Source of the DNA: Erysipelotrichaceae bacterium
Lineage (GTDB): Bacteria > Bacillota_I > Bacilli_A > Erysipelotrichales > Erysipelotrichaceae
Reading direction: 5' to 3'
Assembly: GCA_033808805.1 (NCBI GenBank)
Contig: JAPXMY010000004.1
Location: forward strand, 6,241 to 70,240
DNA length: 64,000 nucleotides
Numbering within the stretch: the stretch's first letter is position 1; every line of letters begins with the position of its first letter. Of the stretch, positions 20,487 through 37,894 are shown piece after piece. The notes under the pieces were generated by a model, which searched no databases, was not told the DNA's origin, and worked only from the letters and a program-made list of their open reading frames with translations. The translations under genes and the position numbers were made by a program.

Positions 20487-21236
20487 TTATTGCATATACT
20501 TTCCGCCATTAGCTAACAGCGCCTCGCCATTAACATAGTCGGACAGGTTAGAAGCTAAGAATAGTATGCAGTTAGCTATATCTTCACTTGTTCCCATACG
20601 ACCCAATGGCAAAGAAGAAAGGACATTTTGTCTGTATTCTGTGGTCCAAGTCTTGGTAATGTCTGTATCAACTGGACCAGGACAGACAGCATTAGCGTAA
20701 ATGCCTTTTTCTCCAAATTCAGCAGCAATATGTCTTACTAAATATAGCAAGCCGGCTTTCGAGGCTCCGTAAGAAGGAGAGGCTCCGAGATTTATATTTT
20801 TTCCAGCAGTAGAAGAAACCATAACAATTTTTCCTCCACCGTGTTTTAAAAACTCTTGTATGGCAATTTGTGAAAGAAACATAGGGTAAGTTAGATTAAC
20901 TCTTATTACTTGCTCCCATTGTTCAGGCGTCATTTCAAGAGTCGGTTGGCGTAGTGCCATTCCAGCATTACATACCAAGATATCTACTTTTTTAAATTTT
21001 TTTATAGCAAAAGAAAATATTTTTTCAACACTTGTCAGGTCATTCCCATCTGCAACAATGTATTCACAGATACCAAAAGCATTAATTTCGTTACAAACTT
21101 CTTGTAATTCTTTTTCTCTTCTTGAAGTAATAACAACTCGTGCTCCCTCTTTAGCGAAAGCAATAGCTGAAGCTTTCCCTATTCCGCTAGAAGCTCCTGT
21201 AATTATTGCGGTTTTATTTTTTAATAAAATATTCAT
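20487..21236 (-). CDS. Short-chain dehydrogenase/reductase (SDR)
   Basis: TGASSGIGKA cofactor motif and YGASKAG catalytic YxxxK. 249 aa. Divergent from the regulator gene with a 35-nt gap. Confidence 0.9.
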   Translation of the reverse strand: MNILLKNKTAIITGASSGIGKASAIAFAKEGARVVITSRREKELQEVCNEINAFGICEYIVADGNDLTSVEKIFSFAIKKFKKVDILVCNAGMALRQPTLEMTPEQWEQVIRVNLTYPMFLSQIAIQEFLKHGGGKIVMVSSTAGKNINLGASPSYGASKAGLLYLVRHIAAEFGEKGIYANAVCPGPVDTDITKTWTTEYRQNVLSSLPLGRMGTSEDIANCILFLASNLSDYVNGEALLANGGKYMQ

Positions 21237-21271
21237 AACAAATCCTCTCTTATTTATTCTATAATATTAAT

Positions 21272-22990
21272 ATGGAAAAAGTAAATGTATTGGTAATTGC
21301 TCCTTATGAGGGACTTAAGGAAACTTTTTTATCCGTTGCACCAGATTATGCAGATTTGATTAATCTGGATATTTATGTCGGGAATTTAGCTGAAGGGTTA
21401 GAAATTGTTAAAACAATAAAAAATCGCTATGATATTGTAATCTCTAGAGGTGGAACTGCTACTCTTATAAGAAAGTCAACAGATATGTTTGTAATGGATA
21501 TTACAATATCTGGTTATGATTTTATGCGAGCTTTTAAAATGGTTGAAAACATTCAAGGGAAAAAGGCGCTGGTTGGTTATGAAAATATAATAAAAGGAGC
21601 TCATAGTGTTGATGTATTTATGAACACGGGAGTAGATTTATTTACAATTACATCAAACGACCACCTCACAGACCTTTATAAAGAGTTGCAAAAACAGAAT
21701 TATGAACTGATTATTGGTGATACTGTTGCTTGTCAGGAGGCAGAGAAAAAAGGCATTAATAACCTGATGCTTATATCGGGCGAAGAAAGCGTTAAAGCAG
21801 CAATAGAGAACGCAATCATAATTGCACAGAGACTAAAGCGTGATAATGATAGGCTTTATTTTCTTGAGCTGATACATAATAGAAAGTCTTGGACAAGCGT
21901 AGTGTTTAACAGTAAAAAAGAAGTTGTAATGTTCTATTCGAAAGATGATAAATTGACTTTGTCAGCTGAAATGTTGAGGGAACATTTAACGCTGGAGAAT
22001 CACGACTTATACTTAGAAACAGAAGATGGTTTTTATGATTTAAATTATAGATCTTTAGATGATGGATATTTTTTGGTTCAATTTCGTAAAGTGTGGAATC
22101 AAAATCAAAGAATAAGAGGTGTTTATGTAATGAATGCCTCAGAAAAAAGTACTTTAAAAGAAAACTGGGCTGATAGATTCTTTTATAGTGAGAAAATACT
22201 TATGCTTATAGACAAAGCCTCAAAATCATCTCGATCAGTGCTTCTTGTTGGTGATACTGGTGCTGGGAAAATGGAGATTGCAGAATCAATACATTATTCT
22301 TCTTCAAACAAAAAATATGCTTTCTTTTCAGTAGATTGTTCAGTGGTCTCATATAATGACTTGTCAAGCTTTTTGGATATGATTAATGGGAAAAAAGGAA
22401 CACTTTGCTTCAGTTCTTTAGAGTGTCTTGATGATATGAGTCAGAGATATTTGTTAAAAGTAATTCCGCAGCTTAATAGAAACGGTTTAAGAATAGTAGG
22501 TGTAGCAAATACTAAGATTAATGATTTCCTTATTAACAAACAATTTGATGCAAGATTGCATAGAATTTTTGCTGAATTGTCATTTTTTGTTCCTAATATT
22601 GAAACAAATGATAAAAATTATACAAACATTATTAATCGTTTAATACTTAAAGCGAATGAAAACCAGGGAAGACAAATTACTGGGATTGATAATGATGCAA
22701 TTAAAGAATTGATTAGTTTTGACTGGATATATAATTATGATCAGCTTACAGTAGCGATAAACCAACTTGTAATGATGACAAATGATACGAGGATACGATT
22801 AGAAGATGTAAAAACACTGTTAAAGCCTTTATCGATAAAAGAAAAGCATAACATTTCGCTTGATGGAACGCTCGATGACATAGAGAAAAAAATTATTGAA
22901 ACAGTAATAAGACAAGAAGGTGGAAATGTTACCAAAGCTGCAGAGAGACTTGGCATAAGTAGAAGCACTATTTGGCGCAAAACCAAATAG
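21272..22990 (+). CDS. PrpR_N-domain transcriptional regulator with a degenerate AAA+ (sigma-54-activator-like) module and a C-terminal Fis-type HTH
   Basis: The N-terminus matches the PrpR-type sensor (VLVIAPYEGL...ISRGGTATLIRK). Walker A GDTGAGK at 22250-22270. There is no GAFTGA, and Walker B is replaced by CFSSLE. HTH is VTKAAERLGISRSTIWRK. Confidence 0.8.
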   Translation: MEKVNVLVIAPYEGLKETFLSVAPDYADLINLDIYVGNLAEGLEIVKTIKNRYDIVISRGGTATLIRKSTDMFVMDITISGYDFMRAFKMVENIQGKKALVGYENIIKGAHSVDVFMNTGVDLFTITSNDHLTDLYKELQKQNYELIIGDTVACQEAEKKGINNLMLISGEESVKAAIENAIIIAQRLKRDNDRLYFLELIHNRKSWTSVVFNSKKEVVMFYSKDDKLTLSAEMLREHLTLENHDLYLETEDGFYDLNYRSLDDGYFLVQFRKVWNQNQRIRGVYVMNASEKSTLKENWADRFFYSEKILMLIDKASKSSRSVLLVGDTGAGKMEIAESIHYSSSNKKYAFFSVDCSVVSYNDLSSFLDMINGKKGTLCFSSLECLDDMSQRYLLKVIPQLNRNGLRIVGVANTKINDFLINKQFDARLHRIFAELSFFVPNIETNDKNYTNIINRLILKANENQGRQITGIDNDAIKELISFDWIYNYDQLTVAINQLVMMTNDTRIRLEDVKTLLKPLSIKEKHNISLDGTLDDIEKKIIETVIRQEGGNVTKAAERLGISRSTIWRKTK

Positions 22991-23167
22991 AGATTCAAAA
23001 TCAAATTTTTTATAACCCCTATTTTACAACAACTTAGGCAACTACATGTCTAGGTTTTTTAATTTCAATTCAATATAAACAGGTGTATTAATAAAGGCGT
23101 TTCCAACATATTTAAGATAACCATGCACAAAAATACATGGATATCCCAATGACAAATGGCACAAAAA

Positions 23168-23203
23168 TGTTTCAAAAACGAACAAACGTTACATATTGAA
23201 ACA
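23168..23203. promoter_or_regulatory. Split inverted repeat TGTTTCAA-N20-TTGAAACA (candidate regulator site)
   Basis: Half-sites at 23168-23175 and 23196-23203. An inner AACG/CGTT dyad is also present. Confidence 0.4.
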
Positions 23204-23228
23204 CTTATTAAAATTTATTTATTTTTTG

Positions 23229-23257
23229 TTGCAAAAAGAAAGTCAATATATTATGAT
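23229..23257 (+). promoter_or_regulatory. Candidate sigma-A promoter of the catabolic operon
   Basis: TTGCAA (23229-23234), 17-nt spacer, TATGAT (23252-23257). An alternative -10 TATAAT lies at 23286-23291. Confidence 0.4.
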
Positions 23258-23290
23258 TAAGATAAATAAATAACATATAGGTGTTTATAA

Positions 23291-23307
23291 TGTTTCAAAT
23301 TGAAACA
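23291..23307. promoter_or_regulatory. Perfect palindrome TGTTTCAA-a-TTGAAACA (candidate operator)
   Basis: 8-nt arms with a 1-nt centre, the same half-site as the upstream split repeat. It lies between the promoter candidates and the RBS of the first operon gene. Confidence 0.45.
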
Positions 23308-23329
23308 AAAGGGGAAAAGAGGAGATAAT

Positions 23330-24397
23330 ATGAATAAACTTCCAATTGTCGGAATTACTATGGGCGATCCAGCTGGTAATGGGCCTGAAATAACTGTAAA
23401 GGCTTTAGCTGATTCATCAATGTATGAAAAGTGCAAGCCTCTTGTGGTGGGAGATGCTCGTATGATTGAAAAAGCAGCCAAAATTGTTGGCCATCCTGAA
23501 ATAAAAATTAATAGAATAGAATGTCCCAATGAAGGATTGTATACTTATGGAACAATTGATGTGCTCCATTTGGATCTTATAAAAAATGTTGATACATTTC
23601 AGTATGGAAAAGTTAGTGCTGAAGCAGGAAATGCTGCTTTTGTATCAGTCAAGAAAGTAATAGAACTAGCTTTGGATGGTCAAGTAGACGCAACAGTTAC
23701 CAATGCTTTAAACAAGGAAGCCATGAATTTAGCAATCAGTAAGGATGGATTGAATTTCGATGGCCATACAGAAATATATGCTACGTATACTAATACTAAA
23801 AAATATACAATGATGCTTGCTCATCATGATTTTAGAGTAGTTCATGTTTCCACTCATGTTTCTATGAGAGAAGCTTGTGACTTAGTAAAAAAGGATAGAG
23901 TTTTTGAGGTAATAGAATTTGCCTATAATGCATGTAAAGATTTAGATATTGAAAATCCTAAAGTTGGTGTCTGTGGATTAAATCCACATGCAGGAGAAAA
24001 TGGTTTATTTGGAAACGAAGAAATTGAGGAAATTATTCCAGCAATTAACAAAGCTAAAGAAAAGGGAATAAATGCTATTGGTCCCTTACCACCTGACAGT
24101 GCATTCTCTCAAATGATAGGTGGATGGTACGACATTGTAGTTTGCATGTATCATGACCAAGGTCATATTCCTACAAAAACCATTGGTTTTGTTTATGATC
24201 GAGAAAAAAAGAAGTGGAAGGCAGTGGAAGGTATAAATGTGACTCTAGGATTGCCTATTATACGTACTTCAGTTGACCATGGAACTGGATTTAGATCAGC
24301 TGGGAAAGGAACAAGCAATGAACTTAGTTTGGTTAGTGCTATAGAATATGCGATTAGAATGGCAAGAACAAAAAGAAAAAAGGAGGGCTTGCAATGA
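23330..24397 (+). CDS. PdxA-family NAD(P)-dependent 4-phospho-hydroxyacid dehydrogenase (PdxA2-like)
   Basis: IVGITMGDPAGNGPEI N-terminus, HTEIY, GLNPHAGENG and DHGT motifs of the PdxA family. ATG 23330 follows AGAGGAG. Confidence 0.85.
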   Translation: MNKLPIVGITMGDPAGNGPEITVKALADSSMYEKCKPLVVGDARMIEKAAKIVGHPEIKINRIECPNEGLYTYGTIDVLHLDLIKNVDTFQYGKVSAEAGNAAFVSVKKVIELALDGQVDATVTNALNKEAMNLAISKDGLNFDGHTEIYATYTNTKKYTMMLAHHDFRVVHVSTHVSMREACDLVKKDRVFEVIEFAYNACKDLDIENPKVGVCGLNPHAGENGLFGNEEIEEIIPAINKAKEKGINAIGPLPPDSAFSQMIGGWYDIVVCMYHDQGHIPTKTIGFVYDREKKKWKAVEGINVTLGLPIIRTSVDHGTGFRSAGKGTSNELSLVSAIEYAIRMARTKRKKEGLQ

Positions 24398-25368
24398 AAA
24401 TAGTTATGACTCAGTCCGTTTGTAGAGAAGGCCTAGAAATAATGGATAAAAATGGCATAAGTTATTACGATGCTAATGGCAATAATCCTAATAACTATTT
24501 AGATTTAATGAGTGACGCTGATGGAATAATAGTCAGGATTGCAACCTGTGATGCTAATGTCATTGAAAATTCTCCAAATCTTAAAGTTATAGGTAGAACA
24601 GGTGTTGGCTATGATTATGTTGATGTGAAAAAAGCAACTGAAAAAGGTATACCTGTTGTAATAACTCCAGGAGCAAATAATAGAAGCGTTGCTGAACATA
24701 CTGTAGCAACCATACTGGCAATGTCCAAAAATTTATATGAGTCAGAAAGTGAGTTTAGAAAAGGTAACTGGAACATTAGAGGCAACGGAAAAATCATTGA
24801 AATTGAACACAAGACAGTTGGCATAATAGGAATGGGCAACATTGGGAAAATTGTTTGTGATTTGTGCAATGGTTTAGGAATGTGCGTCTTGGGTTTTGAT
24901 ACTTTCTTCAGCAAAGATCAAATTGAAGAAATGGGGGCTGAATATTGTGCAGATAAAGAAGAATTATTGAAACAATCAGATTTTATTACTGTTCACATCC
25001 CATTATTTGAAACAACAAGAAATACAATTGCTAAAAAAGAATTTGAAATAATGAAGAAAACAGCTTTTCTTATAAATACCAGTAGAGGAGGAATTGTAAA
25101 CGAAAACGATTTAGTAGAAGCACTGAAAAATGGAGAAATTGCTGGAGCATCACTTGATGTATATAGCCAGGAACCTCTTGAAATGAATAATTCGTTGTTT
25201 TCAGCTCCGAATTTAATGATGACACCTCATATAGCTGCCCAAAGCAAAGAGGCAATCGTGAAAATGGCTGAGATGTGTGTTAACGGAATGATAGCTGTAT
25301 TAAATGGAGAAAAATGGCCTTATGTTGCAGACAAAGCAGTATACGAACATCCAAGATGGAAAGGATAA
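24394..25368 (+). CDS. D-isomer-specific 2-hydroxyacid dehydrogenase (PdxB/SerA/GhrB-like)
   Basis: NAD fold VGIIGMGNIGK. Catalytic-region motifs NRSVAEH, TSRGGIV, LDVYSQEP, TPHIAA. ATGA overlap with the PdxA-family gene. Confidence 0.85.
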   Translation: MKIVMTQSVCREGLEIMDKNGISYYDANGNNPNNYLDLMSDADGIIVRIATCDANVIENSPNLKVIGRTGVGYDYVDVKKATEKGIPVVITPGANNRSVAEHTVATILAMSKNLYESESEFRKGNWNIRGNGKIIEIEHKTVGIIGMGNIGKIVCDLCNGLGMCVLGFDTFFSKDQIEEMGAEYCADKEELLKQSDFITVHIPLFETTRNTIAKKEFEIMKKTAFLINTSRGGIVNENDLVEALKNGEIAGASLDVYSQEPLEMNNSLFSAPNLMMTPHIAAQSKEAIVKMAEMCVNGMIAVLNGEKWPYVADKAVYEHPRWKG

Positions 25369-25372
25369 TAAT

Positions 25373-26560
25373 ATGAAAAAAATTATGGTAATTGCGGATG
25401 ATTTAACTGGGGCTTGCGATACTGGGATAAAGTTCACTCAAAAAGGATATAGGACTAGGGTAATTGTGCCAAAAGAAAATGATAAATCTCTTTTGGATGA
25501 AAGTGTGGATGTTTTCTCTATAACGACTGATACAAGAAACTGCGATTCTAAAGAAGCAAAAATAATTATGAGCAAAATGTTAGATTTTTATGGAGATAAT
25601 TACCACTTCTATAAAAAAATTGATTCAGTTTTAAGAGGAAATATTATCAGTGAACTAGATGTCTTTTTGGAAAAGGGATACGCAAAAAAAGCTATTATCT
25701 GTCCTTCCTTCATAGAAGAAGGAAGAACGTTGGAAAACGGATTTCTTCGAATCAGCAGATCAGAAGGCGAAGCAATAATGAATGTTGGAGAAGCTCTTGG
25801 GTTGAATAGCTGGGAGCACGTTTCCCTTGAAACTGTAAGAGCTGGCCATGAATTTATTGTTGAAAAAGTAAAAAACAGCTATCAAAAATACATAATAATA
25901 GATGCTGTTACAAACGAGGATTTAGAAATTGTCGCAAAAGCTTGTGAAATGCTACCAGAATGTATTCCTGCGGGAAGCTCAGGACTTGCTAGATATTATT
26001 ACGAGCCAATATATCCAAAGAAAATGAGTGGAGTTGAATTTGAAAAAAAAGGAGTGCCTTTAATAGTTGTCGGTACTAAAAATCCAATTACCGTAAGGCA
26101 GGTACAAAAGCTTAAAGAAGTGGAAAATTTGGAAGTTTATTTAGTGTATATAGCCAATGACGGAGTAACGGTGATGAGTACTGCTGTTTTAGAAGAGAAG
26201 AGTAACAAGAAAGGAATTCTGTTGACTACGAATGTTGTTTACTTCAATGAAGAAAATACAGATTATCTATTATATAGAAATTTCAGCAATGAAAATATAA
26301 AAGAAATTATTGCAAAAGAAGCATTTCATATATATAGCAAAAATGATATTTCATCAATAATTGCAACAGGAGGTGATACTGGCTCTTGTGTGCTTGAATC
26401 ACTAGGATTAGACAGAATAGATCTCGTAGAGGAAGTAATGCTTGGCATACCTTATGGAGTAGCAAGTGGCACAAAAGGAAAAAAAGTGAAAATTGTTACT
26501 AAGTCAGGTGGGTTTGGCAAAGAAGATGCACTTATAAAACTATTTGAATATATGAGGTAA
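25373..26560 (+). CDS. Four-carbon acid-sugar kinase family protein (DUF1537; OtnK/DtnK-like)
   Basis: The N-terminal IADDLTGACDTG motif is characteristic of DUF1537. C-terminal GGDTG nucleotide-binding segment. ATG 25373 (the track start at 25304 is an extension overlapping the upstream gene). Confidence 0.8.
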   Translation: MKKIMVIADDLTGACDTGIKFTQKGYRTRVIVPKENDKSLLDESVDVFSITTDTRNCDSKEAKIIMSKMLDFYGDNYHFYKKIDSVLRGNIISELDVFLEKGYAKKAIICPSFIEEGRTLENGFLRISRSEGEAIMNVGEALGLNSWEHVSLETVRAGHEFIVEKVKNSYQKYIIIDAVTNEDLEIVAKACEMLPECIPAGSSGLARYYYEPIYPKKMSGVEFEKKGVPLIVVGTKNPITVRQVQKLKEVENLEVYLVYIANDGVTVMSTAVLEEKSNKKGILLTTNVVYFNEENTDYLLYRNFSNENIKEIIAKEAFHIYSKNDISSIIATGGDTGSCVLESLGLDRIDLVEEVMLGIPYGVASGTKGKKVKIVTKSGGFGKEDALIKLFEYMR

Positions 26561-26564
26561 TAAT

Positions 26565-27443
26565 ATGAAGTATCCAAAAGGCTTAATTGCAGCAATGTCA
26601 ACGCCATTTTATGAAGATGAAACATTAAATGAAAAAGAACTAAGACATCAAGTAGATCGCTTAATTGATGCGGGGGTTCATGGAATATTTACGCTAGGAA
26701 CAAATGGTGAAAATTATACGATGGGCTTTGATGAAAAAGTTAAAGTTATGGAAATAGTTATTGACCAAGTTAGACATAGAGTACCAGTTTTTGTTGGAAC
26801 AGGTTGTGTAACCACTAAGGAAACTTTGGCGCTCAGTAAGAAAGCAAAAGAATTTGGTGCTGAATATCTATCTATCATTTCTCCTTGGTTTGCGCAAAGC
26901 ACTCAGGAAAATTTATATGAACATTTTTCCACAGTTGCCAAGGAAGTAAACATTCCCATAGTTATATACAACATGCCTGCTAGGACAGGAGTCAATGTTG
27001 ATTATAAAACAATGGAAAAATTAGCGAAATTTGAAAATATTGTTGGCATTAAGGACTCCAGTGGAAACTTTGACAATATGCAGAGATATTTAGAAATACC
27101 AGGTCGTAAATTTTCGGTCTTATCTGGAAATGACTCCTTGATACTCCCGTGCCTTTTGGCAGGCGGTCAAGGGGGTATAAGCGGCTTATCAAACGTAATT
27201 CCAGATAGAATGGTAAAAATTGTTACAGAATATGAAAAGGGAAACATTGAAGAAGCTTGGAAATTACAGCGTAGTATAAGACCGCTAAGGGATTGCATGC
27301 AAATGGCTAATCCAAATTCGGTAGTAAAATGTGCAGCAGGTATATTAGGTGAAAATTTGGGTCCCTGCAGAGCACCTTTCAATATAAATGATGAAAACTT
27401 GAAGCAAGCTATAGTGAAAAGTTTAGCATTGATTAATGATTAA
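26565..27443 (+). CDS. DapA/NanA-family class I (Schiff-base) aldolase, paralogue 1
   Basis: GTNGE, YNMPARTG and the Schiff-base lysine context GIKDSSGN. 292 aa. Confidence 0.85.
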   Translation: MKYPKGLIAAMSTPFYEDETLNEKELRHQVDRLIDAGVHGIFTLGTNGENYTMGFDEKVKVMEIVIDQVRHRVPVFVGTGCVTTKETLALSKKAKEFGAEYLSIISPWFAQSTQENLYEHFSTVAKEVNIPIVIYNMPARTGVNVDYKTMEKLAKFENIVGIKDSSGNFDNMQRYLEIPGRKFSVLSGNDSLILPCLLAGGQGGISGLSNVIPDRMVKIVTEYEKGNIEEAWKLQRSIRPLRDCMQMANPNSVVKCAAGILGENLGPCRAPFNINDENLKQAIVKSLALIND

Positions 27444-27461
27444 AAAGGAGATGAAGTCAGT

Positions 27462-28616
27462 ATGTTAGAAAAATTTACTTTAACAGTCCCACAAAATGTA
27501 TATTGTGGTAAAGGAACTTTAGACAAACTTCCTGAATTGTTGAGACAAAAAAAGTTGAAAAATATCGCAATTATTGTAGATAAAACAGTTTCAACATTAG
27601 ATGTATATAAAAAACTAAATAACAAGCTTAAACTTGAATTCAACATTAAGCAATTTACAGATGTACCACCTGAGCCAACAGATGAACAGGTTAAAAAAGT
27701 GGCAGATAGCGTTATGGAATTTGATACTGAAGTAATTGTAGCAATTGGTGGTGGAAGTGTAATGGATTCTGCTAAATTCATATCTGTTATGTTGACTAAT
27801 CCAGATTTTTATGTTGATCTTACTGATAAAGAGAAAATTGTAAATAGACCTATTCCTTTGATTTGCATTCCGACATCCGCTGGAACAGGAAGTGAAGCGA
27901 CACCAAATGCAATTATTTTAATCCCCAAAAAACAAGTTAAAGTAGGTGTGGTACATAATTATTTTCTACCTTCAGATGTAATTTTAGATCCATTAATGAC
28001 AAAATCATTGCCTAAAGCAGTTACTGCTGCTACAGGATTGGACGCATTCTGCCATTGTATTGAAACATATATTTCCAAAAAAACAAATCCCTTTGCCAGA
28101 CTATTCGGTTTGGAGGGGATTAAGCTAATAAATAAATATCTAAAAACGGCTTATGATAATCCCGATGATATGGAGGCTAGAGAGGGAATGGCTATAGCTG
28201 CATTTTATGGAGGTGTGGCTATAACATCTTCATCTACTGTTGCTATTCATGCTTTGTCATATCCACTTGGTGGATCGTACAATATTCCTCATGGTATTTC
28301 TAATGCCGTACTATTACCATATGTAATGGAATACAATATGGATGCAATTGAAGATAGCATTCCAGCTTTGTGTGATGCAATGGGATTGGATAATAAAGAT
28401 TTAAATATTAAAGAAAAAGGTGAATGGTTGGTAAAAGAAATATTTGCGTTATGCGAATATTTAAATATTCCGAAAAGCATAGTTCAGTTTGGTGTCAAAT
28501 CTGAAGATTTAGATAGATTAGCAGCATCAGCTAGTGAGGTTCGAAGACTTCTTGATCAGAATCCAAAACAAATGTCACTTGAAGACATTAAGTCGATATA
28601 TATTCAACTTTTATAG
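27462..28616 (+). CDS. Iron-containing (group III) alcohol dehydrogenase
   Basis: GGGSVMDSAK nucleotide-binding motif. His-rich metal-site segments (DAFCHCIE, HALSYPLG). 384 aa. Confidence 0.85.
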   Translation: MLEKFTLTVPQNVYCGKGTLDKLPELLRQKKLKNIAIIVDKTVSTLDVYKKLNNKLKLEFNIKQFTDVPPEPTDEQVKKVADSVMEFDTEVIVAIGGGSVMDSAKFISVMLTNPDFYVDLTDKEKIVNRPIPLICIPTSAGTGSEATPNAIILIPKKQVKVGVVHNYFLPSDVILDPLMTKSLPKAVTAATGLDAFCHCIETYISKKTNPFARLFGLEGIKLINKYLKTAYDNPDDMEAREGMAIAAFYGGVAITSSSTVAIHALSYPLGGSYNIPHGISNAVLLPYVMEYNMDAIEDSIPALCDAMGLDNKDLNIKEKGEWLVKEIFALCEYLNIPKSIVQFGVKSEDLDRLAASASEVRRLLDQNPKQMSLEDIKSIYIQLL

Positions 28617-28666
28617 TTGATTAAAATATATTTTCATAAAAGAAAAGAAAGGGAGGAAAAATTTTT

Positions 28667-29818: not shown

Positions 29819-29844
29819 TTGTAAAGTTAATCATTTTAATAATT

Positions 29845-29878
29845 ATGCTAGGCAGAAATGTATATCTCTGCCTAGCAT
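29845..29878 (+). promoter_or_regulatory. Intercistronic stem-loop downstream of the SBP gene
   Basis: Perfect 12-bp stem atgctaggcaga / tctgcctagcat, 10-nt loop, no T-run. Confidence 0.55.
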
Positions 29879-29904
29879 AAAACTTAATTCGGAGGTAAAT
29901 TCCT

Positions 29905-30768
29905 ATGATATTGCAATTATTTATTACCGGTATCTCCATGGGCATGCTATATGCGTTGATGGCAATGGGATTGATTCTGATTGTTAAAGCAGTCGGAGTT
30001 CTTAACTTTGCACATGGACAGCTGTTCATGTTAGGCGCATATATAACATGGTCGTTAACCAATCAATTAAATCTGCCTCTTTGGGCTATGATTATTGCTA
30101 TGATTGTGTGTTTTTGTATCGTTGGCTTGTCCTTTATGTTTACTGTTTATTGGCCGCTAAGAAATTCGCCATGGAAAGTAACTGTTGTTATTTCTACTCT
30201 TGGAGCATCTATTGCCCTTAAGGAAGCTGTACGTCTTATTTGGGGGTTTATACCACTTTTAAGTAAGCCATTGATTGATAAGGTCATTCGAATTGGTGAT
30301 GCAGTTATGAATGTACAGTATATTTTTATTATTGTGATAAGTGGAGCATTGATGCTTTTCGTATATTTCTTATTTGAAAAAACATTTATTGGAAAAATAA
30401 TGCAAGCCACAGCCCAAAATCGTTATGCAGCAGAATTGATAGGAATTCCTTCTGTTGTTGCAATTGCTGGGACGTATATGATAAGCATGTGTATGTCTGG
30501 TGTGGGTGGATGGTTAGCTGCACCATTATTTCTAGTTTCACAATCTCTTGGGACATTTGCTCAAAAGGCGTTTGCTGGAATCGTTGTTGGTGGATTTGGC
30601 AGTATAAAAGGTGCTGTTGTCGGTTGTGTTTTAGTTGGTTTAATTGAGTCGTTTTCAATATTGATTACTGATGCCTATAAAGATGCTGTTGTATTTGGAG
30701 TGTTAATTCTCGTACTGATAATTCGTCCAACAGGTATCTTTGGTGAAAAAATTGAAGAAAAAGCTTAA
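29905..30768 (+). CDS. Branched-chain-type ABC transporter permease (LivH-like)
   Basis: 287 aa, multi-TM. LNFAHGQLFMLGAY motif typical of LivH. Confidence 0.85.
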   Translation: MILQLFITGISMGMLYALMAMGLILIVKAVGVLNFAHGQLFMLGAYITWSLTNQLNLPLWAMIIAMIVCFCIVGLSFMFTVYWPLRNSPWKVTVVISTLGASIALKEAVRLIWGFIPLLSKPLIDKVIRIGDAVMNVQYIFIIVISGALMLFVYFLFEKTFIGKIMQATAQNRYAAELIGIPSVVAIAGTYMISMCMSGVGGWLAAPLFLVSQSLGTFAQKAFAGIVVGGFGSIKGAVVGCVLVGLIESFSILITDAYKDAVVFGVLILVLIIRPTGIFGEKIEEKA

Positions 30769-30780
30769 GAGGTGATAGAT

Positions 30781-31797
30781 ATGGAAAAGAAAAAAATTCT
30801 AGAACCTAAAATAATTGGGATAATTATAGCATCTATAATTATAATTGCTGCATTCATTATAATTCCTCTTCCTGGAGTTATAAGTAGGTATATGCTCAAA
30901 ATCTTTAATGATGGCTTAATTTACTTTATTGCTGCATTAGGTTTGAGTGTTATGCTCGGTATGGGAGGGCAAGTCACCTATTCAACAGCTGGAATTATGG
31001 GTGTTGGTGCATATATAACCGCAATTCTGTCTACTAAATATGGCTGGAATACTGGCCTTGCCATTATTGTTGCCTTGATTTCTGGTGCAATCTTTTCATT
31101 TATAGTTGGTTTAGCATTATTTAGATTGAAAGGAAGTTATTTTTCGTTTGCATCGATTGGGTTGACAAACTTGCTTGTTACCATTTTTTCCAACTGGATG
31201 GAAATGACAGATGGACCAGATGGCATAACAAGAATTCCAAAACTGGATCTTGGATTTATAAAATTTACAGATTTTAATAGCTATTTCCGCATTTTATTTA
31301 TTGTTGCTCTTATTTGCTATTTGTTTGTTTTAAGGTTGCGTAAAACAAGTTATGGTAGAGCCTTAGCTTCGGTCAGAGATAACGAGATTACTGCTGCATC
31401 ATTTGGCGTCAACTGTTATATGACAAAGGTTTATAGTTTTGTCATAGCTGGCGTATTTGCCTGTCTTGCAGGAGGGCTATATGCAGTACACGCAGGTTTT
31501 ATTTCACCTGAACCGTTCAAATATGACCAATCAGCTATTTATCTAATCATGGTTATGCTAGGTGGTGTTGATAATACTTTTGGAGCATTTTTAGGAACTA
31601 CACTATTAACGATAATACCAGAGAAAATGCGTTGGTTGAACGATTACTATAAATTAATTTATGGTATTGGTGTCATTGTCTTGATGATATTTATGCCTAT
31701 GGGATTGATGGGCATTGTTGAGAACATTAAATATAAAATAAAATCCAAAATTAAAAAGCGTAGGCAATCAAATGTTGTGGAAACGGAGGTTAACTAA
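30781..31797 (+). CDS. Branched-chain-type ABC transporter permease (LivM-like)
   Basis: Multi-TM. ATG 30781 lies 6 nt after AGAGGTG (a GTG at 30772 is also possible). GQVTYSTAG motif. Confidence 0.85.
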   Translation: MEKKKILEPKIIGIIIASIIIIAAFIIIPLPGVISRYMLKIFNDGLIYFIAALGLSVMLGMGGQVTYSTAGIMGVGAYITAILSTKYGWNTGLAIIVALISGAIFSFIVGLALFRLKGSYFSFASIGLTNLLVTIFSNWMEMTDGPDGITRIPKLDLGFIKFTDFNSYFRILFIVALICYLFVLRLRKTSYGRALASVRDNEITAASFGVNCYMTKVYSFVIAGVFACLAGGLYAVHAGFISPEPFKYDQSAIYLIMVMLGGVDNTFGAFLGTTLLTIIPEKMRWLNDYYKLIYGIGVIVLMIFMPMGLMGIVENIKYKIKSKIKKRRQSNVVETEVN

Positions 31798-31798
31798 T

Positions 31799-32557
31799 AT
31801 GGGAAAAGTATTGTTAGAAGTTCGTGATGTAAATAAAGCATTTGGTGGCGTTGTAACAGCTAAAAATGTTGATATGAAGGTCAAAGCTGGAGAAATTCAT
31901 GGTTTAATTGGACCTAATGGTGCTGGCAAGACAACCCTTCTAAATCTTATCAGCGGTATATATGAAGTAGACAGTGGTCAGATTTTCTTTGAAGAAAAAG
32001 AAATAACTCACTTGCCGGCACACAAAAGAGCAAGACTTGGTTTAGGTAGAACTTTCCAGTCGCCGCGTTTCATGAATCGTGCAAGTATTAAAGATAATCT
32101 TGAATTAGGTACAGATCTACGTAATCAGTTTTCATATACTCAATCTTTTTTCGGGAAAAAAGGAGCAGATTTCTACAGTGAATTAGAAGAACTTATGGAA
32201 ATTGCTGGTTTTACATTTGATTGGAACGAACATATAACCTCGCTACCATATGGTCAACAGAAACTTTTAGAAATTGTTAGAGCAATGCTTGCACATCCAA
32301 TAGTTATTCTAGTTGATGAGCCAGCTGCTGGACTTAATAAACAAGAGCAAGAAAGAGTCTCTTTATTGTTGAGAAAAGCAGTTGATAGTGGTATGGGAGT
32401 TGTACTGATTGAACACTCTATGGAAATGGTTATGAATATTTGTGACAATATTACAGTTTTAAACTTTGGAGAAGTAATTGCTAAAGGAAAACCACAGGAA
32501 ATTGCAACTAATCCACAGGTAATTGAAGCGTATCTTGGAGGTGAAAACGATGCTTAA
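31799..32557 (+). CDS. Branched-chain-type ABC transporter ATP-binding protein (LivG-like)
   Basis: GPNGAGKTT, LPYGQQKLLEI, LVDEPAAG. ATG 31799 follows GGAGG. Confidence 0.9.
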   Translation: MGKVLLEVRDVNKAFGGVVTAKNVDMKVKAGEIHGLIGPNGAGKTTLLNLISGIYEVDSGQIFFEEKEITHLPAHKRARLGLGRTFQSPRFMNRASIKDNLELGTDLRNQFSYTQSFFGKKGADFYSELEELMEIAGFTFDWNEHITSLPYGQQKLLEIVRAMLAHPIVILVDEPAAGLNKQEQERVSLLLRKAVDSGMGVVLIEHSMEMVMNICDNITVLNFGEVIAKGKPQEIATNPQVIEAYLGGENDA

Positions 32558-33287
32558 AATTAACAATCTTCACGCTTACTATGGGCCTATTGAAGCACTT
32601 AAAGGCATAAATTTACATGTTGATGAAGGCAAAATTGTTTGTCTTATTGGGGCAAATGGTGCTGGCAAGACAACATTGCTTAATGCTATAAGTGGGATGG
32701 TGTCAAAAACAGGAGAAATTTTTTGGGACGATATAGAGCTCAGCAAGTTAAACAGTACAAAGATAGCTAAGGAAGGTATTATGCACGTTCCCTCAGGACG
32801 TCATATTTTCCCAGGACTGACAGTTAAAGAAAATCTAGAATTGGGAACTGTCAGCTGGCGTGGCCCTTTTGGAAAAGGAAAATATGATGAAGATTTAGAA
32901 ACAGTATATAATCTGTTTCCAAGATTAAGAGAAAGAGAAAATCAACTTGGTTGGTCTATGTCCGGTGGTGAGCAACAAATGTTGGCAGTAGGTCGTGCTC
33001 TGATGGGAAGACCTAAACTATTGCTTCTTGATGAACCATCAATGGGGCTTGCTCCTGTTATTGTTGCTGATTTATTTGAGAAAATAGTAGAAATAAATAA
33101 AACTTTGGGATTAACAATTCTTTTGGTTGAACAAAATGCCAAAATTGCGCTCAAGGTTTCTGACTATGCCTATGTTCTTGAAGATGGACATATTACTATT
33201 GAAGGAAAGTCTTCAGATTTACAAGACGATCCTCGAATTGTACAAGCGTATTTAGGAAAATTTGCTGCAGGGAAGGGAGATGAATGA
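32550..33287 (+). CDS. Branched-chain-type ABC transporter ATP-binding protein (LivF-like)
   Basis: GANGAGKTT, MSGGEQQML, LLDEPSMGL. ATG 32550 follows GGAGGTG. Confidence 0.9.
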   Translation: MLKINNLHAYYGPIEALKGINLHVDEGKIVCLIGANGAGKTTLLNAISGMVSKTGEIFWDDIELSKLNSTKIAKEGIMHVPSGRHIFPGLTVKENLELGTVSWRGPFGKGKYDEDLETVYNLFPRLRERENQLGWSMSGGEQQMLAVGRALMGRPKLLLLDEPSMGLAPVIVADLFEKIVEINKTLGLTILLVEQNAKIALKVSDYAYVLEDGHITIEGKSSDLQDDPRIVQAYLGKFAAGKGDE

Positions 33288-33288
33288 T

Positions 33289-34203
33289 ATGGAAAAAGAA
33301 CTTTATCCTATACAGGGTATAATAACAACGGTTATTTCGCCTTTTATTGGTGAAAATAAAGAATTAGATCTTGAATCACTACGAAATGAAATTGATATGG
33401 CATGTAAAGCTGGTGTTACAGGTTTTTTAGTGCCATGTTTGGCTAGTGAACAGTGGCTATTGTCAAATGAAGAGAAAAAGCTTCTTGTTTCAGAAACTAA
33501 AAAAGCTGCAAAGGGAAGAGCTAAACTAATCACATCAATTACTGCTCCAACTGTTAAAGAAAGAATTGAACTTATGAATAGTTTCCGTGATCTTGGGATT
33601 AATGGATTTAATATGCAAGTTCCTTTTGACACAAAAGAGAACTTCGATGAAGCAATAGCAGCTGTTGATGCACAAAACCCTGAATTTCTATTTATTCAAG
33701 ATGCTGATTTTTCAGGCAATGGGATTGATCCCGATTGGCTTGTCGATGCTTTTAATAAGTATAAAAGTGTAGTAGGTGTAAAAAGTGAAGTAAAGTTCAC
33801 TGCCCCGAAGCTTACTAAATTAAAAGAAGCAACTAACAATAAGATGGTTTTAGCTTCTGGATGGGGTAATGATCAGTTGCTTGAACTGTTAGATAGAGGG
33901 GTTCACACAGTGATGCCATCAGGTATGTTTGAACTTTGGGTAAAAGTTTACGATTTGCATAGTTCAGGCAATCGTGATGCTGCTCAAAAATTATTTTATG
34001 ATATGTTACCAATAATTACCTTTACAAGACAGTCACAAGAGCTAAATAGATGGTTCCATAAACGCTATCTTGTCAGATTTGGCGCTTTTAAAGAAGAAAT
34101 ATCAAGAGAAGAGGTTTTTCTTGATGAATATCACGTTAGATATGCGGATGAATTAATAGAAAGAGCTAAATTCTTGATTGACCATTTGGATGAATATAAA
34201 TAA
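33289..34203 (+). CDS. DapA-family aldolase-like protein, divergent paralogue 2
   Basis: TIM-barrel DHDPS-like N-terminus (GIITTVISPF...GVTGFLV) and Lys in VGVKSEV. The start is 33289 or 33280. Confidence 0.7.
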   Translation: MEKELYPIQGIITTVISPFIGENKELDLESLRNEIDMACKAGVTGFLVPCLASEQWLLSNEEKKLLVSETKKAAKGRAKLITSITAPTVKERIELMNSFRDLGINGFNMQVPFDTKENFDEAIAAVDAQNPEFLFIQDADFSGNGIDPDWLVDAFNKYKSVVGVKSEVKFTAPKLTKLKEATNNKMVLASGWGNDQLLELLDRGVHTVMPSGMFELWVKVYDLHSSGNRDAAQKLFYDMLPIITFTRQSQELNRWFHKRYLVRFGAFKEEISREEVFLDEYHVRYADELIERAKFLIDHLDEYK

Positions 34204-34220
34204 AAGGAGGGTATAACTTA

Positions 34221-35117
34221 ATGCATGAAAAAGTTTATGGCATAATTGCTGCTATGGTCACTTCTATGAACGAAGATGAAACATTGAATGAAAAAGAAAT
34301 TAGAAACCAGGTTAATAGGCAAATAAATGCTGGAGCAGATGCTGTTTTCTGTTTGGGAACAAACGGCGAATTTTACATCCAGACCGAAGAAGAAAAATTG
34401 CGTGTTATCAAAATTGTTGTTGATGAAGTTGCTGGTAGAGTGCCAGTATACGCAGGTACAGGATGTACAGGAACGAAAGCTACTATTGATTTATCATTAA
34501 AGGCTAAAGAACTTGGAGTTGATGTACTATCAATTATAAGTCCTTACTTTGCAGCAATTTCGCAAAAAGAAATATTCAATCACTATAAGAGTATTGCTGA
34601 AGCCGTTGATTTACCGATAGTTATGTATAATATGCCTGCACGAACAGGTAATAATATTGACCCGGAAACAGTTGCGAAACTTGCGGTAATTCCTAATATT
34701 GCCGGCATTAAGGATAGTTCAGGAAACTGGGACAATCTTAAAGCGTATATTGATGTTACAAAAGGGATGGATTTTTCTGTATTATCAGGAAACGATTCGC
34801 TAATTCTACCTTGCTTAAAAGAAGGAGGCCACGGCGGAATTACTGCTGTTGCCAACATTTATCCAAAAACAATGGTATCAATTTATCAATTGTTTAAAGC
34901 AGGCGATTTAGAAGGAGCTGAAAAAGCACAGGATTCTATTGCTTCAATAAGATCTTGCTTTAAATTTGGAAACCCTAATACAGTAACTAAAAAAGCAACT
35001 AATCTAACAGGATATCCGGTAGGACCTTGTAGGGCGCCATTTAACTATCTAAGTGATGAAGCTGTAGAAGTGATTAAACTAACGTTAGATAAAGACAAAG
35101 AAAACGGAATGGAATAA
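34221..35117 (+). CDS. DapA/NanA-family class I aldolase, paralogue 3
   Basis: Shares DETLNEKE, YNMPARTG, GIKDSSGN and FSVLSGNDSLILPCL verbatim with the 26565 gene. Confidence 0.85.
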   Translation: MHEKVYGIIAAMVTSMNEDETLNEKEIRNQVNRQINAGADAVFCLGTNGEFYIQTEEEKLRVIKIVVDEVAGRVPVYAGTGCTGTKATIDLSLKAKELGVDVLSIISPYFAAISQKEIFNHYKSIAEAVDLPIVMYNMPARTGNNIDPETVAKLAVIPNIAGIKDSSGNWDNLKAYIDVTKGMDFSVLSGNDSLILPCLKEGGHGGITAVANIYPKTMVSIYQLFKAGDLEGAEKAQDSIASIRSCFKFGNPNTVTKKATNLTGYPVGPCRAPFNYLSDEAVEVIKLTLDKDKENGME

Positions 35118-35159
35118 ATTAATGATTTATTCAAACGGGACGCTTTCCAGGTAGTCGAA

Positions 35160-36074
35160 ATGAAAATACTTTACTATGAGATAGATGACCTGCATCAGGC
35201 AGGTGTATTATCTGTGGATGGAGACACCGTATATTCATTTAAACAGTTGGGCTTACCATGGAATAACATTCAAGAGCTTTGTGATGATAAGGACATCAAC
35301 AAGTTAAAAAAAATAAAAAGCCGAGTTGAAGAAGTTTCTATAAACGGAGTATCTTTAAGCAATATTAAAATTCTCTCTCCTATTCCAGAGGTTAGAAGGG
35401 GAATAATTTGTATTGGTTTTAACTTTAAGAATCATGCTCAAGAAGTGGCTGTTTTAAGAGGGGAATCAAAGGATACTGCCAATATAGCTCATCCTATATA
35501 TTTTTCTAAAAGAAATGCGACTACTACTGGTCCTGGTGATGACGTTCCTTATGTAAAAGGATATGCAGAAAATCTTGATGTTGGTGTTGAAGTGTGTGTA
35601 ATCATTGGCCAAGATGCTCTAAATGTGCCAAGAGAAAAAGTTAAAGATTACATACTTGGATATACTATTGCTAACGATATTTGTGACACCAGAATAAATA
35701 AAGTCTATACCCAACCTTTTTTAGGGAAGAGTATTGATGGCTATATTCCAATAGGTCCTTGGATAGTGACAACAGACGAATTTGAAGAAAATCCATTATT
35801 TGACTTAAAACTTACGGTTAATAAAGAAGTGAGGCAAGAAGGCAATACAAGAGATTTGGTTTTTGATATACCTTATATTGTGTCTGAGCTATCTACTAAT
35901 ATGACTTTAAAAGCAGGGACAATTATTGCAACAGGTTCACCAGCTAATATTGATGCTGGTAATCCAAAAAAACTTATGTTGTTACCAGGGGATGTTATCA
36001 CTTGTGAAATAAGTCAAATTGGGACTTTGACCAATATAGTTAAAGAAAAAAATGATACGGAGGCATGGCGATGA
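35160..36074 (+). CDS. Fumarylacetoacetate hydrolase (FAH) family protein 1
   Basis: C-terminal FAH-domain motifs: GYTIANDICDTR, IPIGPWIV, TGSPANI, GDVITCEISQIGTLTN. An N-terminal beta domain is also present. Confidence 0.85.
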   Translation: MKILYYEIDDLHQAGVLSVDGDTVYSFKQLGLPWNNIQELCDDKDINKLKKIKSRVEEVSINGVSLSNIKILSPIPEVRRGIICIGFNFKNHAQEVAVLRGESKDTANIAHPIYFSKRNATTTGPGDDVPYVKGYAENLDVGVEVCVIIGQDALNVPREKVKDYILGYTIANDICDTRINKVYTQPFLGKSIDGYIPIGPWIVTTDEFEENPLFDLKLTVNKEVRQEGNTRDLVFDIPYIVSELSTNMTLKAGTIIATGSPANIDAGNPKKLMLLPGDVITCEISQIGTLTNIVKEKNDTEAWR

Positions 36075-36889
36075 TATTTACTGTATATGCATATAAAGGC
36101 AAAACCTTTCCTTCGCTTTATAAAGATGGAAAAGTTGTTTCTTTAAGGAGTCTAGGATTAAATTATGCTACATTAGAGGAAACAGCTAGATTTATAAATG
36201 AAAAACAATTTGAAACATTAAAAAATGTTGATTTTTCTCAAGGTATAGAAGTCTCAAAAGTTACTTTAATGCCAGCTATTATGGAACCAACCCAAGATAT
36301 AATAATAATGGAAAACAATTTTGTTGATAATGGCAATCCATTGCCAACGTATTTTTATAAAAAAGTTAATTATGCAAATTGCAGTGGAGGTATTGTTCCA
36401 TCTTATCCAGGCCATGTTACAGAACTTGATTATCAAGTTGAGGTTTGCGCAGTTGTAAGAAATGATGCTTATCAAGTTTCTAAAGAACAAGCTTCGAAGC
36501 ATATTTTTGGCTATGTACTTATTAATAATATAATTGCCAGGAATCTAACCGCGCGTCATCGTAGACCATATATTGCCACTAGTTTAAATGGTTATCTGCC
36601 AATGGGATACTTTATTGCTACTTCTGATGAATTTGATAAACCTATAGAACTAAAAAGTTATGTGAATGGAGAATTAAGACAAAAAGATATAATCAATAAT
36701 GTTAACTTTGATTTTAATTATGCTATCAGTGATTTGTCTAGAATTAGTATTTTAAGAGGGGGTTCTATAATTTCGTCAGGCACTCCTTTTGGAACTGCGA
36801 AAGATTTAAATAAACCATATTTATCAAGTGGTGATATTGTCTGTGTTGAAGCTGATAATCTTGGAACAATTACGAACATTGTAGAATAG
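36071..36889 (+). CDS. Fumarylacetoacetate hydrolase (FAH) family protein 2
   Basis: Same architecture (LPMGYFIATS, SGTPFG, GDIVCVEADNLGTITN). ATG 36071 lies 7 nt after GGAGG (36065 is also possible) and overlaps the upstream stop. Confidence 0.8.
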   Translation: MIFTVYAYKGKTFPSLYKDGKVVSLRSLGLNYATLEETARFINEKQFETLKNVDFSQGIEVSKVTLMPAIMEPTQDIIIMENNFVDNGNPLPTYFYKKVNYANCSGGIVPSYPGHVTELDYQVEVCAVVRNDAYQVSKEQASKHIFGYVLINNIIARNLTARHRRPYIATSLNGYLPMGYFIATSDEFDKPIELKSYVNGELRQKDIINNVNFDFNYAISDLSRISILRGGSIISSGTPFGTAKDLNKPYLSSGDIVCVEADNLGTITNIVE

Positions 36890-36898
36890 GAGATAATT

Positions 36899-37894
36899 AT
36901 GCATAAGATAATGATAACTTATCCGTTGTTTGGAGAAGCTATGGATATATTACATACCAGGGCAGATTTATTTATGTCTAATTCTGGACAGATAGAGCCA
37001 TTTATAAAACAGTTGGCAAAGGCTGAGGCTTTTATTACTAGAAATGTTCATCCTACTATAGAACAATTGGAAAAATGTCCCAATCTCAAAGTTATAGGAA
37101 TACCTGGAGTAGGTTATCAAAACTATGACATAGATTATTTGAATCAGAGGGGAATTGCTCTGGTATATTGCCCGGGAATAAATTTTAGAAGCGTTGCTGA
37201 ACATGCCTTAACATTGGCACTTTCTTTAAGTAAAAATATTGTCAGGGATAATAATGAAGTAAGAAAAGGTAATTATGGTATTAGAAACAGTTTTGACAAT
37301 TGTGAGATGCTAGGTAAAAACGTTGGAATCGTTGGGTATGGTGCCATAGGCAAAGAAACAGCTAAACTATTTAATGCTATTGGATTAAATGTCTATGTCT
37401 ATGATCCTTTTGTCGAAGAAGAAACATGTAAAAAAAATGGATACATTTATTGCTTTACACTAGATGAACTGTTGTTGAATGCTGATATTATTTCACTGCA
37501 TATGCCATCAACCGATGAAACTCGTCACATGTTCTCGTATCATCAATTTGAAACAATGAAAAAAGGTGTAATAATTATCAACTGTGCTAGAGGAGCAATT
37601 ATTGATGAAGATGCACTATTTGAAGCTTTGGTTTCTGGCAAAGTATTAGCAGCAGGATTAGATGTAATGGAAAAAGAACCATTTGATTGTAATAACAAAT
37701 TATTTAAGCTTGATAATGTTTTATTCACTCCACATGTAGCAGGGGTAACTACTGAATCTTCAAGTAAAATTCATAAAATGGTTGTTGAAACATCACTAAA
37801 ATTATTGGATGGTGTATATATTGATAACATCGTCAACAAAGAGGCTCTTAAACATTCAAGATGGAAGAATTTAAAAAACAATAAAGTAATATAA
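36899..37894 (+). CDS. D-isomer-specific 2-hydroxyacid dehydrogenase, second paralogue
   Basis: VGIVGYGAIGK, FRSVAEH, CARGAII, LDVMEKEP, TPHVAG. Confidence 0.85.
   Translation: MHKIMITYPLFGEAMDILHTRADLFMSNSGQIEPFIKQLAKAEAFITRNVHPTIEQLEKCPNLKVIGIPGVGYQNYDIDYLNQRGIALVYCPGINFRSVAEHALTLALSLSKNIVRDNNEVRKGNYGIRNSFDNCEMLGKNVGIVGYGAIGKETAKLFNAIGLNVYVYDPFVEEETCKKNGYIYCFTLDELLLNADIISLHMPSTDETRHMFSYHQFETMKKGVIIINCARGAIIDEDALFEALVSGKVLAAGLDVMEKEPFDCNNKLFKLDNVLFTPHVAGVTTESSSKIHKMVVETSLKLLDGVYIDNIVNKEALKHSRWKNLKNNKVI

Follow-up and report, generated by a model that had tools for sequence, protein, structure and literature searches.

The D-glucarate/galactarate pathway relies on the aldolase GarL, the tartronate-semialdehyde reductase GarR, and the glycerate kinase GarK, and DUF1537 kinases are known to place phosphate onto the terminal CH2OH group of small acid sugars. 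DUF1537 kinases acting together with PdxA2 have been described as converting D-threonate and D-erythronate to dihydroxyacetone phosphate (DHAP) (Zhang 2016, as cited in PMC10971088 and PMC10580937). Our analysis of a 64,000-nucleotide stretch of an Erysipelotrichaceae bacterium (assembly GCA_033808805.1, contig JAPXMY010000004.1, positions 6,241 to 70,240 of the forward strand; hereafter the window, to which all coordinates refer unless a locus or genome is named) identified an operon that is apparently a variant of DUF1537/PdxA2 acid-sugar catabolism undescribed in the literature searched. A preliminary description of this DNA had suggested that a longer acid sugar is degraded to pyruvate and a C4 acid, which is then funneled to DHAP. 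Comparative evidence favored this suggestion in a refined form, in which the C4 acid would arise through an Fe-dependent alcohol dehydrogenase (Fe-ADH) from a dicarboxylic substrate. The accompanying statement that no described pathway uses this set of genes also held for the literature searched, in which no paper describing this route was found.

Pfam and NCBIfam scans recovered all 17 genes of the preliminary description, each at its reported position. The co-directional run from PdxA to the last gene (23330-37894) comprised, in order, PdxA, a D-2-hydroxyacid dehydrogenase (2-HADH), the DUF1537 kinase, a DHDPS (DapA-family) protein, the Fe-ADH, five Liv-type ATP-binding cassette (ABC) importer genes, two further DHDPS proteins, two fumarylacetoacetate hydrolase (FAH)-family proteins, and a second 2-HADH, so that every family previously listed was found by Pfam. 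The reported close packing was likewise evident, with spacings of -10 to 86 nt and several start/stop overlaps after the starts had been refined by ribosome-binding sites, and a strong hairpin terminator (37964-37991), just 5′ of the rpsJ leader, closed the operon. Pfam also confirmed the short-chain dehydrogenase/reductase (SDR) gene (20487-21236, reverse strand) and the regulator gene (21272-22990, forward strand) upstream of the block. Function-specific NCBIfam cut-offs were reached by none of the enzymes, except for two DHDPS proteins, which barely exceeded the DapA model (TIGR00674), and PdxA, which exceeded the general pdxA model (TIGR00557; 320 versus 290 bits).

Related loci were gathered with a kinase alignment as the query, a single-kinase query having matched no relative, and 87 of them were compared with the proteins of these 17 genes by tblastn, alongside inspection of the gene tables of five metagenome contigs. 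A metagenome-assembled genome of Erysipelotrichia from the same genus (L008) carried the same genes in the same order with 73-98% identity, and two metagenome scaffolds (L003 and L004) did so within unrelated flanks; the apparent absence of the first 2-HADH from L003 was due to a scaffold gap, its first 188 residues being present with 80% identity. The same set recurred in Oscillospiraceae (L006/L009, L012, and L013), Christensenella (L010), and other contigs (L005 and L007). The occurrence of an identical gene set and order in several Firmicutes lineages with differing neighbors shows that the block is no chance mixture. It is present in many anaerobes and is best explained as a single catabolic operon, passed on horizontally, for the use of an acid sugar. 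The possibility, raised in the preliminary description, that the modules are usually unlinked elsewhere was not borne out, since they were linked in many lineages.

All versions of the cassette had in common a regulator, the kinase, the Fe-ADH, PdxA, a transporter, and one aldolase of the type encoded by the third DapA-family gene of the window (paralogue 3). In the minimal version, found in Marinisporobacter balticus, Marasmitruncus massiliensis, and a Calditrichales genome, a TAXI-type tripartite ATP-independent periplasmic (TRAP) carrier replaced the ABC importer and a DUF386 protein was added. The minimal-cassette aldolase was 64-65% identical to paralogue 3, and the closest specific NCBIfam model of the DUF386 protein was N-acetylneuraminate anomerase (114 bits against a cut-off of 160). 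In Sporosarcina, Halalkalibacter, and Gilliamella, the same four enzymes were accompanied by a sialidase-like BNR_2 protein and by carriers of the DctPQM or SSF type. In an Acidobacteriota locus (L049), Pfam identified the kinase and PdxA with an SSF carrier, BNR_2, an aldo-keto reductase, and a class II pyruvate aldolase of the HpcH/HpaI family; tblastn placed this aldolase beside the kinase and PdxA in another five Acidobacteriota loci, two of which had the reductase and some of which had BNR_2. To judge from these assignments, the DapA-type aldolase and the Fe-ADH are displaced in Acidobacteriota by non-orthologous families, with the predicted chemistry kept. We regard this exchange of two functions for unrelated families, with the set left intact, as the most compelling sign of a single pathway comprising aldolase, reductase, kinase, and PdxA. 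The window contained the same combination, in that an aldolase, a reductase, the DUF1537 kinase, and PdxA were co-located with a transporter (Pfam and tblastn). A Muribaculaceae locus (L086) had the kinase and PdxA only, amid housekeeping genes. As a separate observation, the Calditrichales cassette (L015) encoded a 505-aa flavoprotein resembling fumarate reductase/succinate dehydrogenase (L015 16830-18347) between the TAXI permease and the aldolase.

We propose import of a 2-keto-3-deoxy dicarboxylic sugar acid by the Liv-type ABC system, with 3-deoxy-D-lyxo-2-heptulosaric acid (Dha) as the best candidate. A DapA/NanA-type Schiff-base aldolase (paralogue 3, 34221-35117, and perhaps paralogue 1, 26565-27443) would cleave this compound to pyruvate and 2,3-dihydroxy-4-oxobutanoate, which the Fe-ADH (27462-28616) would reduce to a tetronate (D-threonate in the case of Dha, according to our own Fischer-projection derivation). 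The DUF1537 kinase (25373-26560), a putative tetronate 4-kinase, would then produce tetronate 4-phosphate, and the PdxA-type enzyme (23330-24397), a putative 4-phospho-tetronate oxidative decarboxylase, would oxidize and decarboxylate it to DHAP and CO2; all five genes lie on the forward strand. Reduction of the aldehyde is placed before the kinase because the latter needs a CH2OH group, and because the aldehyde must already carry a carboxylate to yield a tetronate, the substrate would be dicarboxylic, namely a 4,5,6-trihydroxy-2-oxoheptanedioate. Stereoisomers of the substrate, or modified versions of it, are probably dealt with by the additional aldolase paralogue, the diverged DapA-like protein (paralogue 2), the FAH pair, the 2-HADHs, and the SDR.

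The kinase (Pfam SBD_N, 2.2e-36; NBD_C, 4.3e-17) corresponded to the 395-aa form in the database, and its family motifs were invariant across 24 relatives; it scored 105 bits against a cut-off of 350 for 3-oxo-tetronate kinase (NF043035). In the kinase tree, it fell within a clade of Liv-type loci (Shimodaira-Hasegawa approximate likelihood ratio test, 93). The deeper branches of this tree were long and poorly settled, and orthology with the Gilliamella and Bacillaceae kinases is not claimed for that reason. In PdxA (Pfam PdxA, 2.3e-99), the zinc-binding and catalytic residues His136, His166, His211, His266, Asp247, Asp267, and Arg292 (E. coli numbering) were invariant in the alignment. The Fe-ADH (Pfam Fe-ADH and ADH_Fe_C), a putative C4 semialdehyde-acid reductase, belongs to a family that includes succinate semialdehyde reductases. 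A role of the PdxB-like dehydrogenase, PdxA, and kinase triad in pyridoxal phosphate biosynthesis was ruled out, as PdxJ (PF03740) was not found in the host genome (1.64 Mb, 98.2% complete).

The active sites of the DapA-family proteins were read from an alignment with E. coli DapA, whose catalytic set (Thr44, Tyr107, Tyr133, Lys161, and Arg138) was incomplete in all three paralogues. Paralogue 1 (Pfam DHDPS, forward strand), paralogue 3, and the minimal-cassette aldolases of L020 and L026 kept Thr44, Tyr133, Lys161, and Arg138, with Tyr107 replaced by Phe and Thr45 by Asn. Paralogue 2 (33289-34203, forward strand), a divergent DapA-fold protein with a DHDPS match of only 6.5e-21, kept the Schiff-base Lys161 and had lost Thr44, Tyr133, and Arg138; it was 70-88% conserved among loci and may represent a new activity in the DapA family. 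The motifs YN[MI]P[AS][RK]TG, containing Tyr133 and Arg138, and GTNGE were present in every extracted cassette aldolase, including those of Gilliamella and Bacillaceae (YNMPARTG and GTNGE in paralogue 3), the Arg138 position being occupied by Lys in one of them. In the aldolase tree, a single supported clade (96/98) united paralogues 1 and 3 with the aldolases of the TAXI cassettes, and paralogue 2 occupied a very long separate branch. Since Arg138 of DapA holds the carboxylate of aspartate semialdehyde (ASA), a C4 semialdehyde acid, its retention fits an aldehyde product with a distal carboxylate; NanA has Leu142 where the cassette lyases have Arg. The NanA equivalog cut-offs were missed, with 151-167 bits against 382 (TIGR00683) and 281 (NF003164). 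Lysine biosynthesis was ruled out as the role of the DapA-like genes because no DapB was found in the genome (searched with DapB_N), which also had no DHDPS genes other than these three.

The importer consisted of a Liv-type binding protein (Peripla_BP_6; 28667-29818), two permeases (BPD_transp_2; 29905-30768 and 30772-31797), and two ATPases (ABC_tran; 31799-32557 and 32550-33287, with starts refined by ribosome-binding sites), all on the forward strand. Alignment of the binding protein with LivJ and LivK, in which positions are approximate at 19-25% identity, revealed a pocket not of the amino acid type, with Tyr18 replaced by Asn, Tyr150 by Leu, Tyr202 by Gln, and Glu226 by Ser. The Asn, Gln, and Ser at positions 18, 202, and 226 were found in all five cluster binding proteins, and the pocket had gained a conserved Arg and a conserved Lys at two positions. 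These substitutions argue for an anionic ligand rather than an α-amino acid, and an amino acid importer was ruled out on the same residues. To our knowledge, Dha is the only natural 4,5,6-trihydroxy-2-oxoheptanedioate. It occurs in rhamnogalacturonan-II (RG-II) of pectin and in the scales of green algae (prasinophytes). The sialidase-like and anomerase-like genes of related cassettes would fit a ketosidically linked, ring-forming ulosonic acid such as this, and no publication on Dha catabolism was found, the literature on heptulosaric acid being judged by title.

Several observations weigh against the proposed pathway. The kinase reached 150 bits against the cut-off of 450 for the D-threonate kinase DtnK (NF047819), and PdxA reached 301.6 bits against 583 for the D-threonate 4-phosphate dehydrogenase PdxA2 (NF002891). 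Seven of the 17 genes fall outside the proposed steps, one Erysipelotrichaceae variant lacked PdxA and aldolase paralogue 3, and the host is a 1.6-Mb anaerobic-digester organism. Liv-type loci nearly always add the first 2-HADH, which is superfluous to the simple pathway, and no gene for a sialidase-like BNR_2 or DUF386 anomerase was found in the window, its genome, or any Liv-type locus, so that the Liv-type substrate may differ from that of the cassettes carrying these genes. The last two points would be accommodated if the core chemistry were the same and the Liv-type substrate were a related open-chain 2-hydroxy or 2-oxo dicarboxylate (e.g., a 3-deoxy-aldarate) instead of Dha; the first 2-HADH, absent from TAXI and SSF cassettes, would initially oxidize it to the 2-oxo acid, and the DapA-like and FAH proteins would form a second branch through dehydration, isomerization, or decarboxylation. 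In the same direction, the FAH proteins were closest to HpaG/HpcE, which acts on C7 2-oxo-diacids, and the L007 operon contained a nickel-pincer (LarA-type) 2-hydroxyacid isomerase (L007 17329-18567; NCBIfam nickel-pincer group 22; 486 bits, above the cut-off). The context of this isomerase hints at the substrate class of group 22; a paper on LarA (PMC11770544) held no matching gene context. Against such an open-chain substrate, aldolases 1 and 3 group with those of the TAXI/DUF386 cassettes in one well-supported clade, their common active-site signature speaks for an aldol substrate that is identical or closely similar, and we know of no natural candidate compound. We consider this explanation unlikely, and it keeps substantial weight.

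The most common arrangement among the loci, found in most of 80, was the kinase and PdxA alone, and the 2-HADHs of the window are PdxB/SerA-like. Both features would be expected if a C4 acid sugar (D-threonate, D-erythronate, or L-threonate) were imported directly, with the 2-HADHs interchanging C2 epimers and the remaining enzymes belonging to co-regulated pathways of a composite operon. However, the aldolase and Fe-ADH accompany the kinase and PdxA in different phyla and alongside four transporter types, and their replacement by functional analogues is unexpected for unrelated passengers, which renders direct import of a C4 acid improbable. Breakdown or salvage of a hydroxy-amino acid or a derivative thereof (4-hydroxythreonine or an ASA-related compound), with the Liv importer taking up amino acids and the DapA-like proteins acting on ASA-like aldehydes, would draw on the Liv type of the importer, the two DapA-like proteins that surpass the DapA model and keep Arg138, and the capacity of DUF1537 kinases to phosphorylate 4-hydroxythreonine (Thiaville 2016, as cited in PMC10971088). 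Several observations speak against it: LivJ residues by which an α-amino acid is bound are missing from the binding protein (Ser for Glu226 and Gln for Tyr202), the locus contains no aminotransferase or deaminase, the genome lacks PdxJ and DapB, Tyr107 and Thr45 of DapA are replaced, and the related cassettes employ TRAP, TAXI, or SSF carriers with sialidase-like or anomerase-like genes. An amino acid derivative, which the preliminary description had mentioned as an alternative, is thus very improbable as the substrate. Returning to the pathway proposed above, we regard the order aldolase, reductase, kinase, and PdxA, which is moderately backed by comparative genomics and active-site features, as rather probably correct, and the explanation as a whole, comprising an acid-sugar operon, Dha-type steps, and sigma-70 control, as standing at about even chances. 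The identification of the substrate as Dha itself is tentative. Equally doubtful is the joint proposition of a first Dha catabolic route with an expanded second branch (duplicated aldolase, DapA-fold protein, and FAH pair) under a regulator in transition from sigma-54 to sigma-70.

The accessory genes of the Liv-type loci often included an SDR, the DapA-like paralogue 2, a second aldolase, the FAH pair, and a second 2-HADH. The divergently transcribed SDR (Pfam adh_short_C2, 1e-58; no specific NCBIfam model) was kept at the same position in L003, L006, L008, and L022, and Bacillaceae cassettes also contained an SDR inside the cassette. The first 2-HADH (SerA/PdxB-like; 24394-25368) was present in most Liv-type loci, and the second (36899-37894) was an accessory gene; both were assigned by Pfam and NCBIfam and lie on the forward strand. 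The two FAH-family genes (Pfam; 35160-36074 and 36065-36889, forward strand) overlap, and comparison with HpcE (1gtt) and 8sky revealed alterations of the canonical E-x-E...D metal triad to G-x-E...D in FAH1 and Q-x-E...N in FAH2, which were conserved in the orthologues. The pair could be the two halves of an HpaG-like two-domain enzyme encoded separately, or a heteromer in which one metal site has changed. The preliminary description had assigned the SDR and FAH proteins to a diketo-hydrolase route; this does not agree with the altered triads, with the scores of FAH1 and FAH2 against the L-2,4-diketo-3-deoxyrhamnonate hydrolase model (NF053535; 135 and 59 bits versus a cut-off of 500), or with the accessory status of the FAH genes. 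Collectively, these extra genes suggest either that the configuration at C2 is edited or that the substrate is modified or reduced.

Relatives of enhancer-binding proteins (EBPs) can function without sigma-54, as TyrR and DhaR illustrate. The regulator of the operon (Pfam) comprised a PrpR_N sensor, a degenerate AAA+ domain, and a Fis-type HTH_8 domain. Walker A was kept, the GAFTGA loop was deleted, Walker B read CFSSLE, and Sigma54_activat was matched only over profile positions 10-67 of 168. The rpoN domains PF04552 and PF04963 were not found in the genome, and no -24/-12 element (TGGCAC-N5-TTGC) was found upstream of PdxA, where a TGGCAC at 23157 is followed by TGTT. Judging from these motifs, the regulator is no longer a sigma-54 activator. 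The control region (23168-23307) contained GTTTC/GAAAC half-sites (23168-23175 and 23196-23203) and a GTTTC-N5-GAAAC palindrome (23291-23307), with sigma-70-like hexamers between these putative operators (23229-23257); a terminator-like hairpin (23031-23056, forward strand) lay 3′ of the regulator gene. In the promoter layout of Liv-type loci, palindromes were situated 5′ of the -35 element and between the -10 element and the ribosome-binding site, and the pair surrounding a TTGACA/TATAAT promoter was kept in L003, L006, L008, L012, and L013. The PrpR_N-type regulator would control this sigma-70 promoter through the GTTTC-N5-GAAAC operators. The regulators of minimal cassettes were complete EBPs, and L015, L020, and L026 carried TGGCAC-N5-TTGCT promoters and TTGCA-rich upstream repeats 5′ of the kinase, so that one operon family evidently shows both control modes, sigma-54 and sigma-70-like. 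A paper on sigma-54 regulons (PMC6615313) did not mention the cluster.

The block of the preliminary description coincided very closely with a 17.5-kb accessory island (20464-37951), whose edges were defined by an insertion/replacement polymorphism relative to a sibling genome (G013). In blastn, the flanks of G013 matched those of the window with 96.9% DNA identity on the left, as far as 20463, and 98.0% on the right, from 37952 onward; between these flanks G013 contained only about 1.25 kb, including a PdxA gene 77% identical to that of the window (78% for the protein). A metagenome contig of run X19 had the same short form, with an apgM-like gene, a diverged PdxA, and the rpsJ leader joined. 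The island in the window has displaced the lone PdxA seen in G013, and the kinase was present in one of 15 genomes of the genus. Near-identical copies of the stretch were detected in anaerobic digester, bioreactor, sludge, and manure metagenomes from several studies. In a comparison of the window with L003, identity was 73-90% for the importer, aldolases, Fe-ADH, and first 2-HADH and 52-58% for the regulator, PdxA, and kinase; this split within the operon suggests a mosaic formed by recombination between versions of the cluster. The island lay in the spacer that separates the str operon (tuf ends at 14034) from the S10 operon (rpsJ from 38133). This tuf-rpsJ spacer (14034-38133) was a hot spot for cargo in the genus: where the window has the island, G011 (L101, G011:C1 6712-13083) carried PdxA (80%) along with EIIA-man, a PfkB kinase, a beta-lactamase-like gene, and two small genes. 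In G013 (L102, G013:C4 8581-13630; window 16584-20390), a LysR regulator, a DASS anion carrier, an ApgM-like phosphomutase, and the lone PdxA preceded rpsJ; a small acid-phosphate pathway of their own might be made up by the DASS carrier, ApgM-like protein, and PdxA.

The question addressed by this locus is the fate of Dha, a signature sugar of RG-II, once it has been freed in guts, rumens, digesters, and sediments. If the proposed pathway is correct, it would constitute a new carbohydrate pathway, explain the source of bacterial D-threonate and the real purpose of the widespread DtnK/PdxA2-like pairs, and thereby assign a physiological role to the DUF1537/PdxA pairs, a large group with poor annotation. 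Biocatalysis would gain a C7-diacid aldolase and a tetruronate reductase. The expanded locus offers three uncharacterized enzyme types, namely a DapA-fold protein in which the usual catalytic Tyr and Thr are missing and two FAH proteins whose metal sites are altered, and its regulator would be a clear natural case of an EBP freed from sigma-54 in a host in which no rpoN was found.

Among known systems, the D-threonate/D-erythronate pathways (DtnK or DenK with PdxA2) share with the window the adjacent kinase and PdxA, the intact PdxA residues, and the predicted products DHAP and CO2. Unlike in those pathways, the pair is joined here to an aldolase and an Fe-ADH, through which the tetronate would be made intracellularly from a larger acid; the scores lie well under the equivalog cut-offs, and the transporter and regulator are of other types. 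The glucarate/galactarate pathway follows the same logic, in that a 2-keto-3-deoxy-aldarate is cleaved to pyruvate and a semialdehyde acid, which is reduced and phosphorylated, and the aldolase of the Acidobacteriota cassette is even of the GarL/HpaI family. It differs in its C6 substrate, as opposed to the proposed C7 substrate, in the absence of an additional PdxA decarboxylation, and in the families of aldolase, reductase, and kinase, and the window locus contains no dehydratase. Sialic acid (nan) catabolism resembles the window in its NanA-fold Schiff-base lyase and the related cassettes in the BNR_2 protein, the YhcH-family protein (114 bits to the anomerase model), and the TRAP/SSF carriers, whereas the NanA cut-offs were missed, the downstream enzymes are unrelated to NanK and NanE, and the window lacks sialidase-like and anomerase genes. 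In the homoprotocatechuate pathway (HpaG/HpcE, followed by HpaI or the DapA-family TIGR02313), C7 2-oxo-diacids yield pyruvate and a C4 semialdehyde acid; FAH1 and FAH2 matched HpaG domains best, and the aldolases matched TIGR02313 second best. However, all these scores were below the cut-offs, the FAH triads are altered, no ring-cleavage genes were seen in the locus, and the host appears to be strictly anaerobic. The regulator, whose best NCBIfam match was DhaR, resembles TyrR and DhaR of E. coli in combining a sensor, an AAA+ domain, and a Fis-type helix-turn-helix without a working sigma-54 contact and in its sigma-70-like target, and it differs from both in its PrpR_N sensor and in the additional loss of Walker B.

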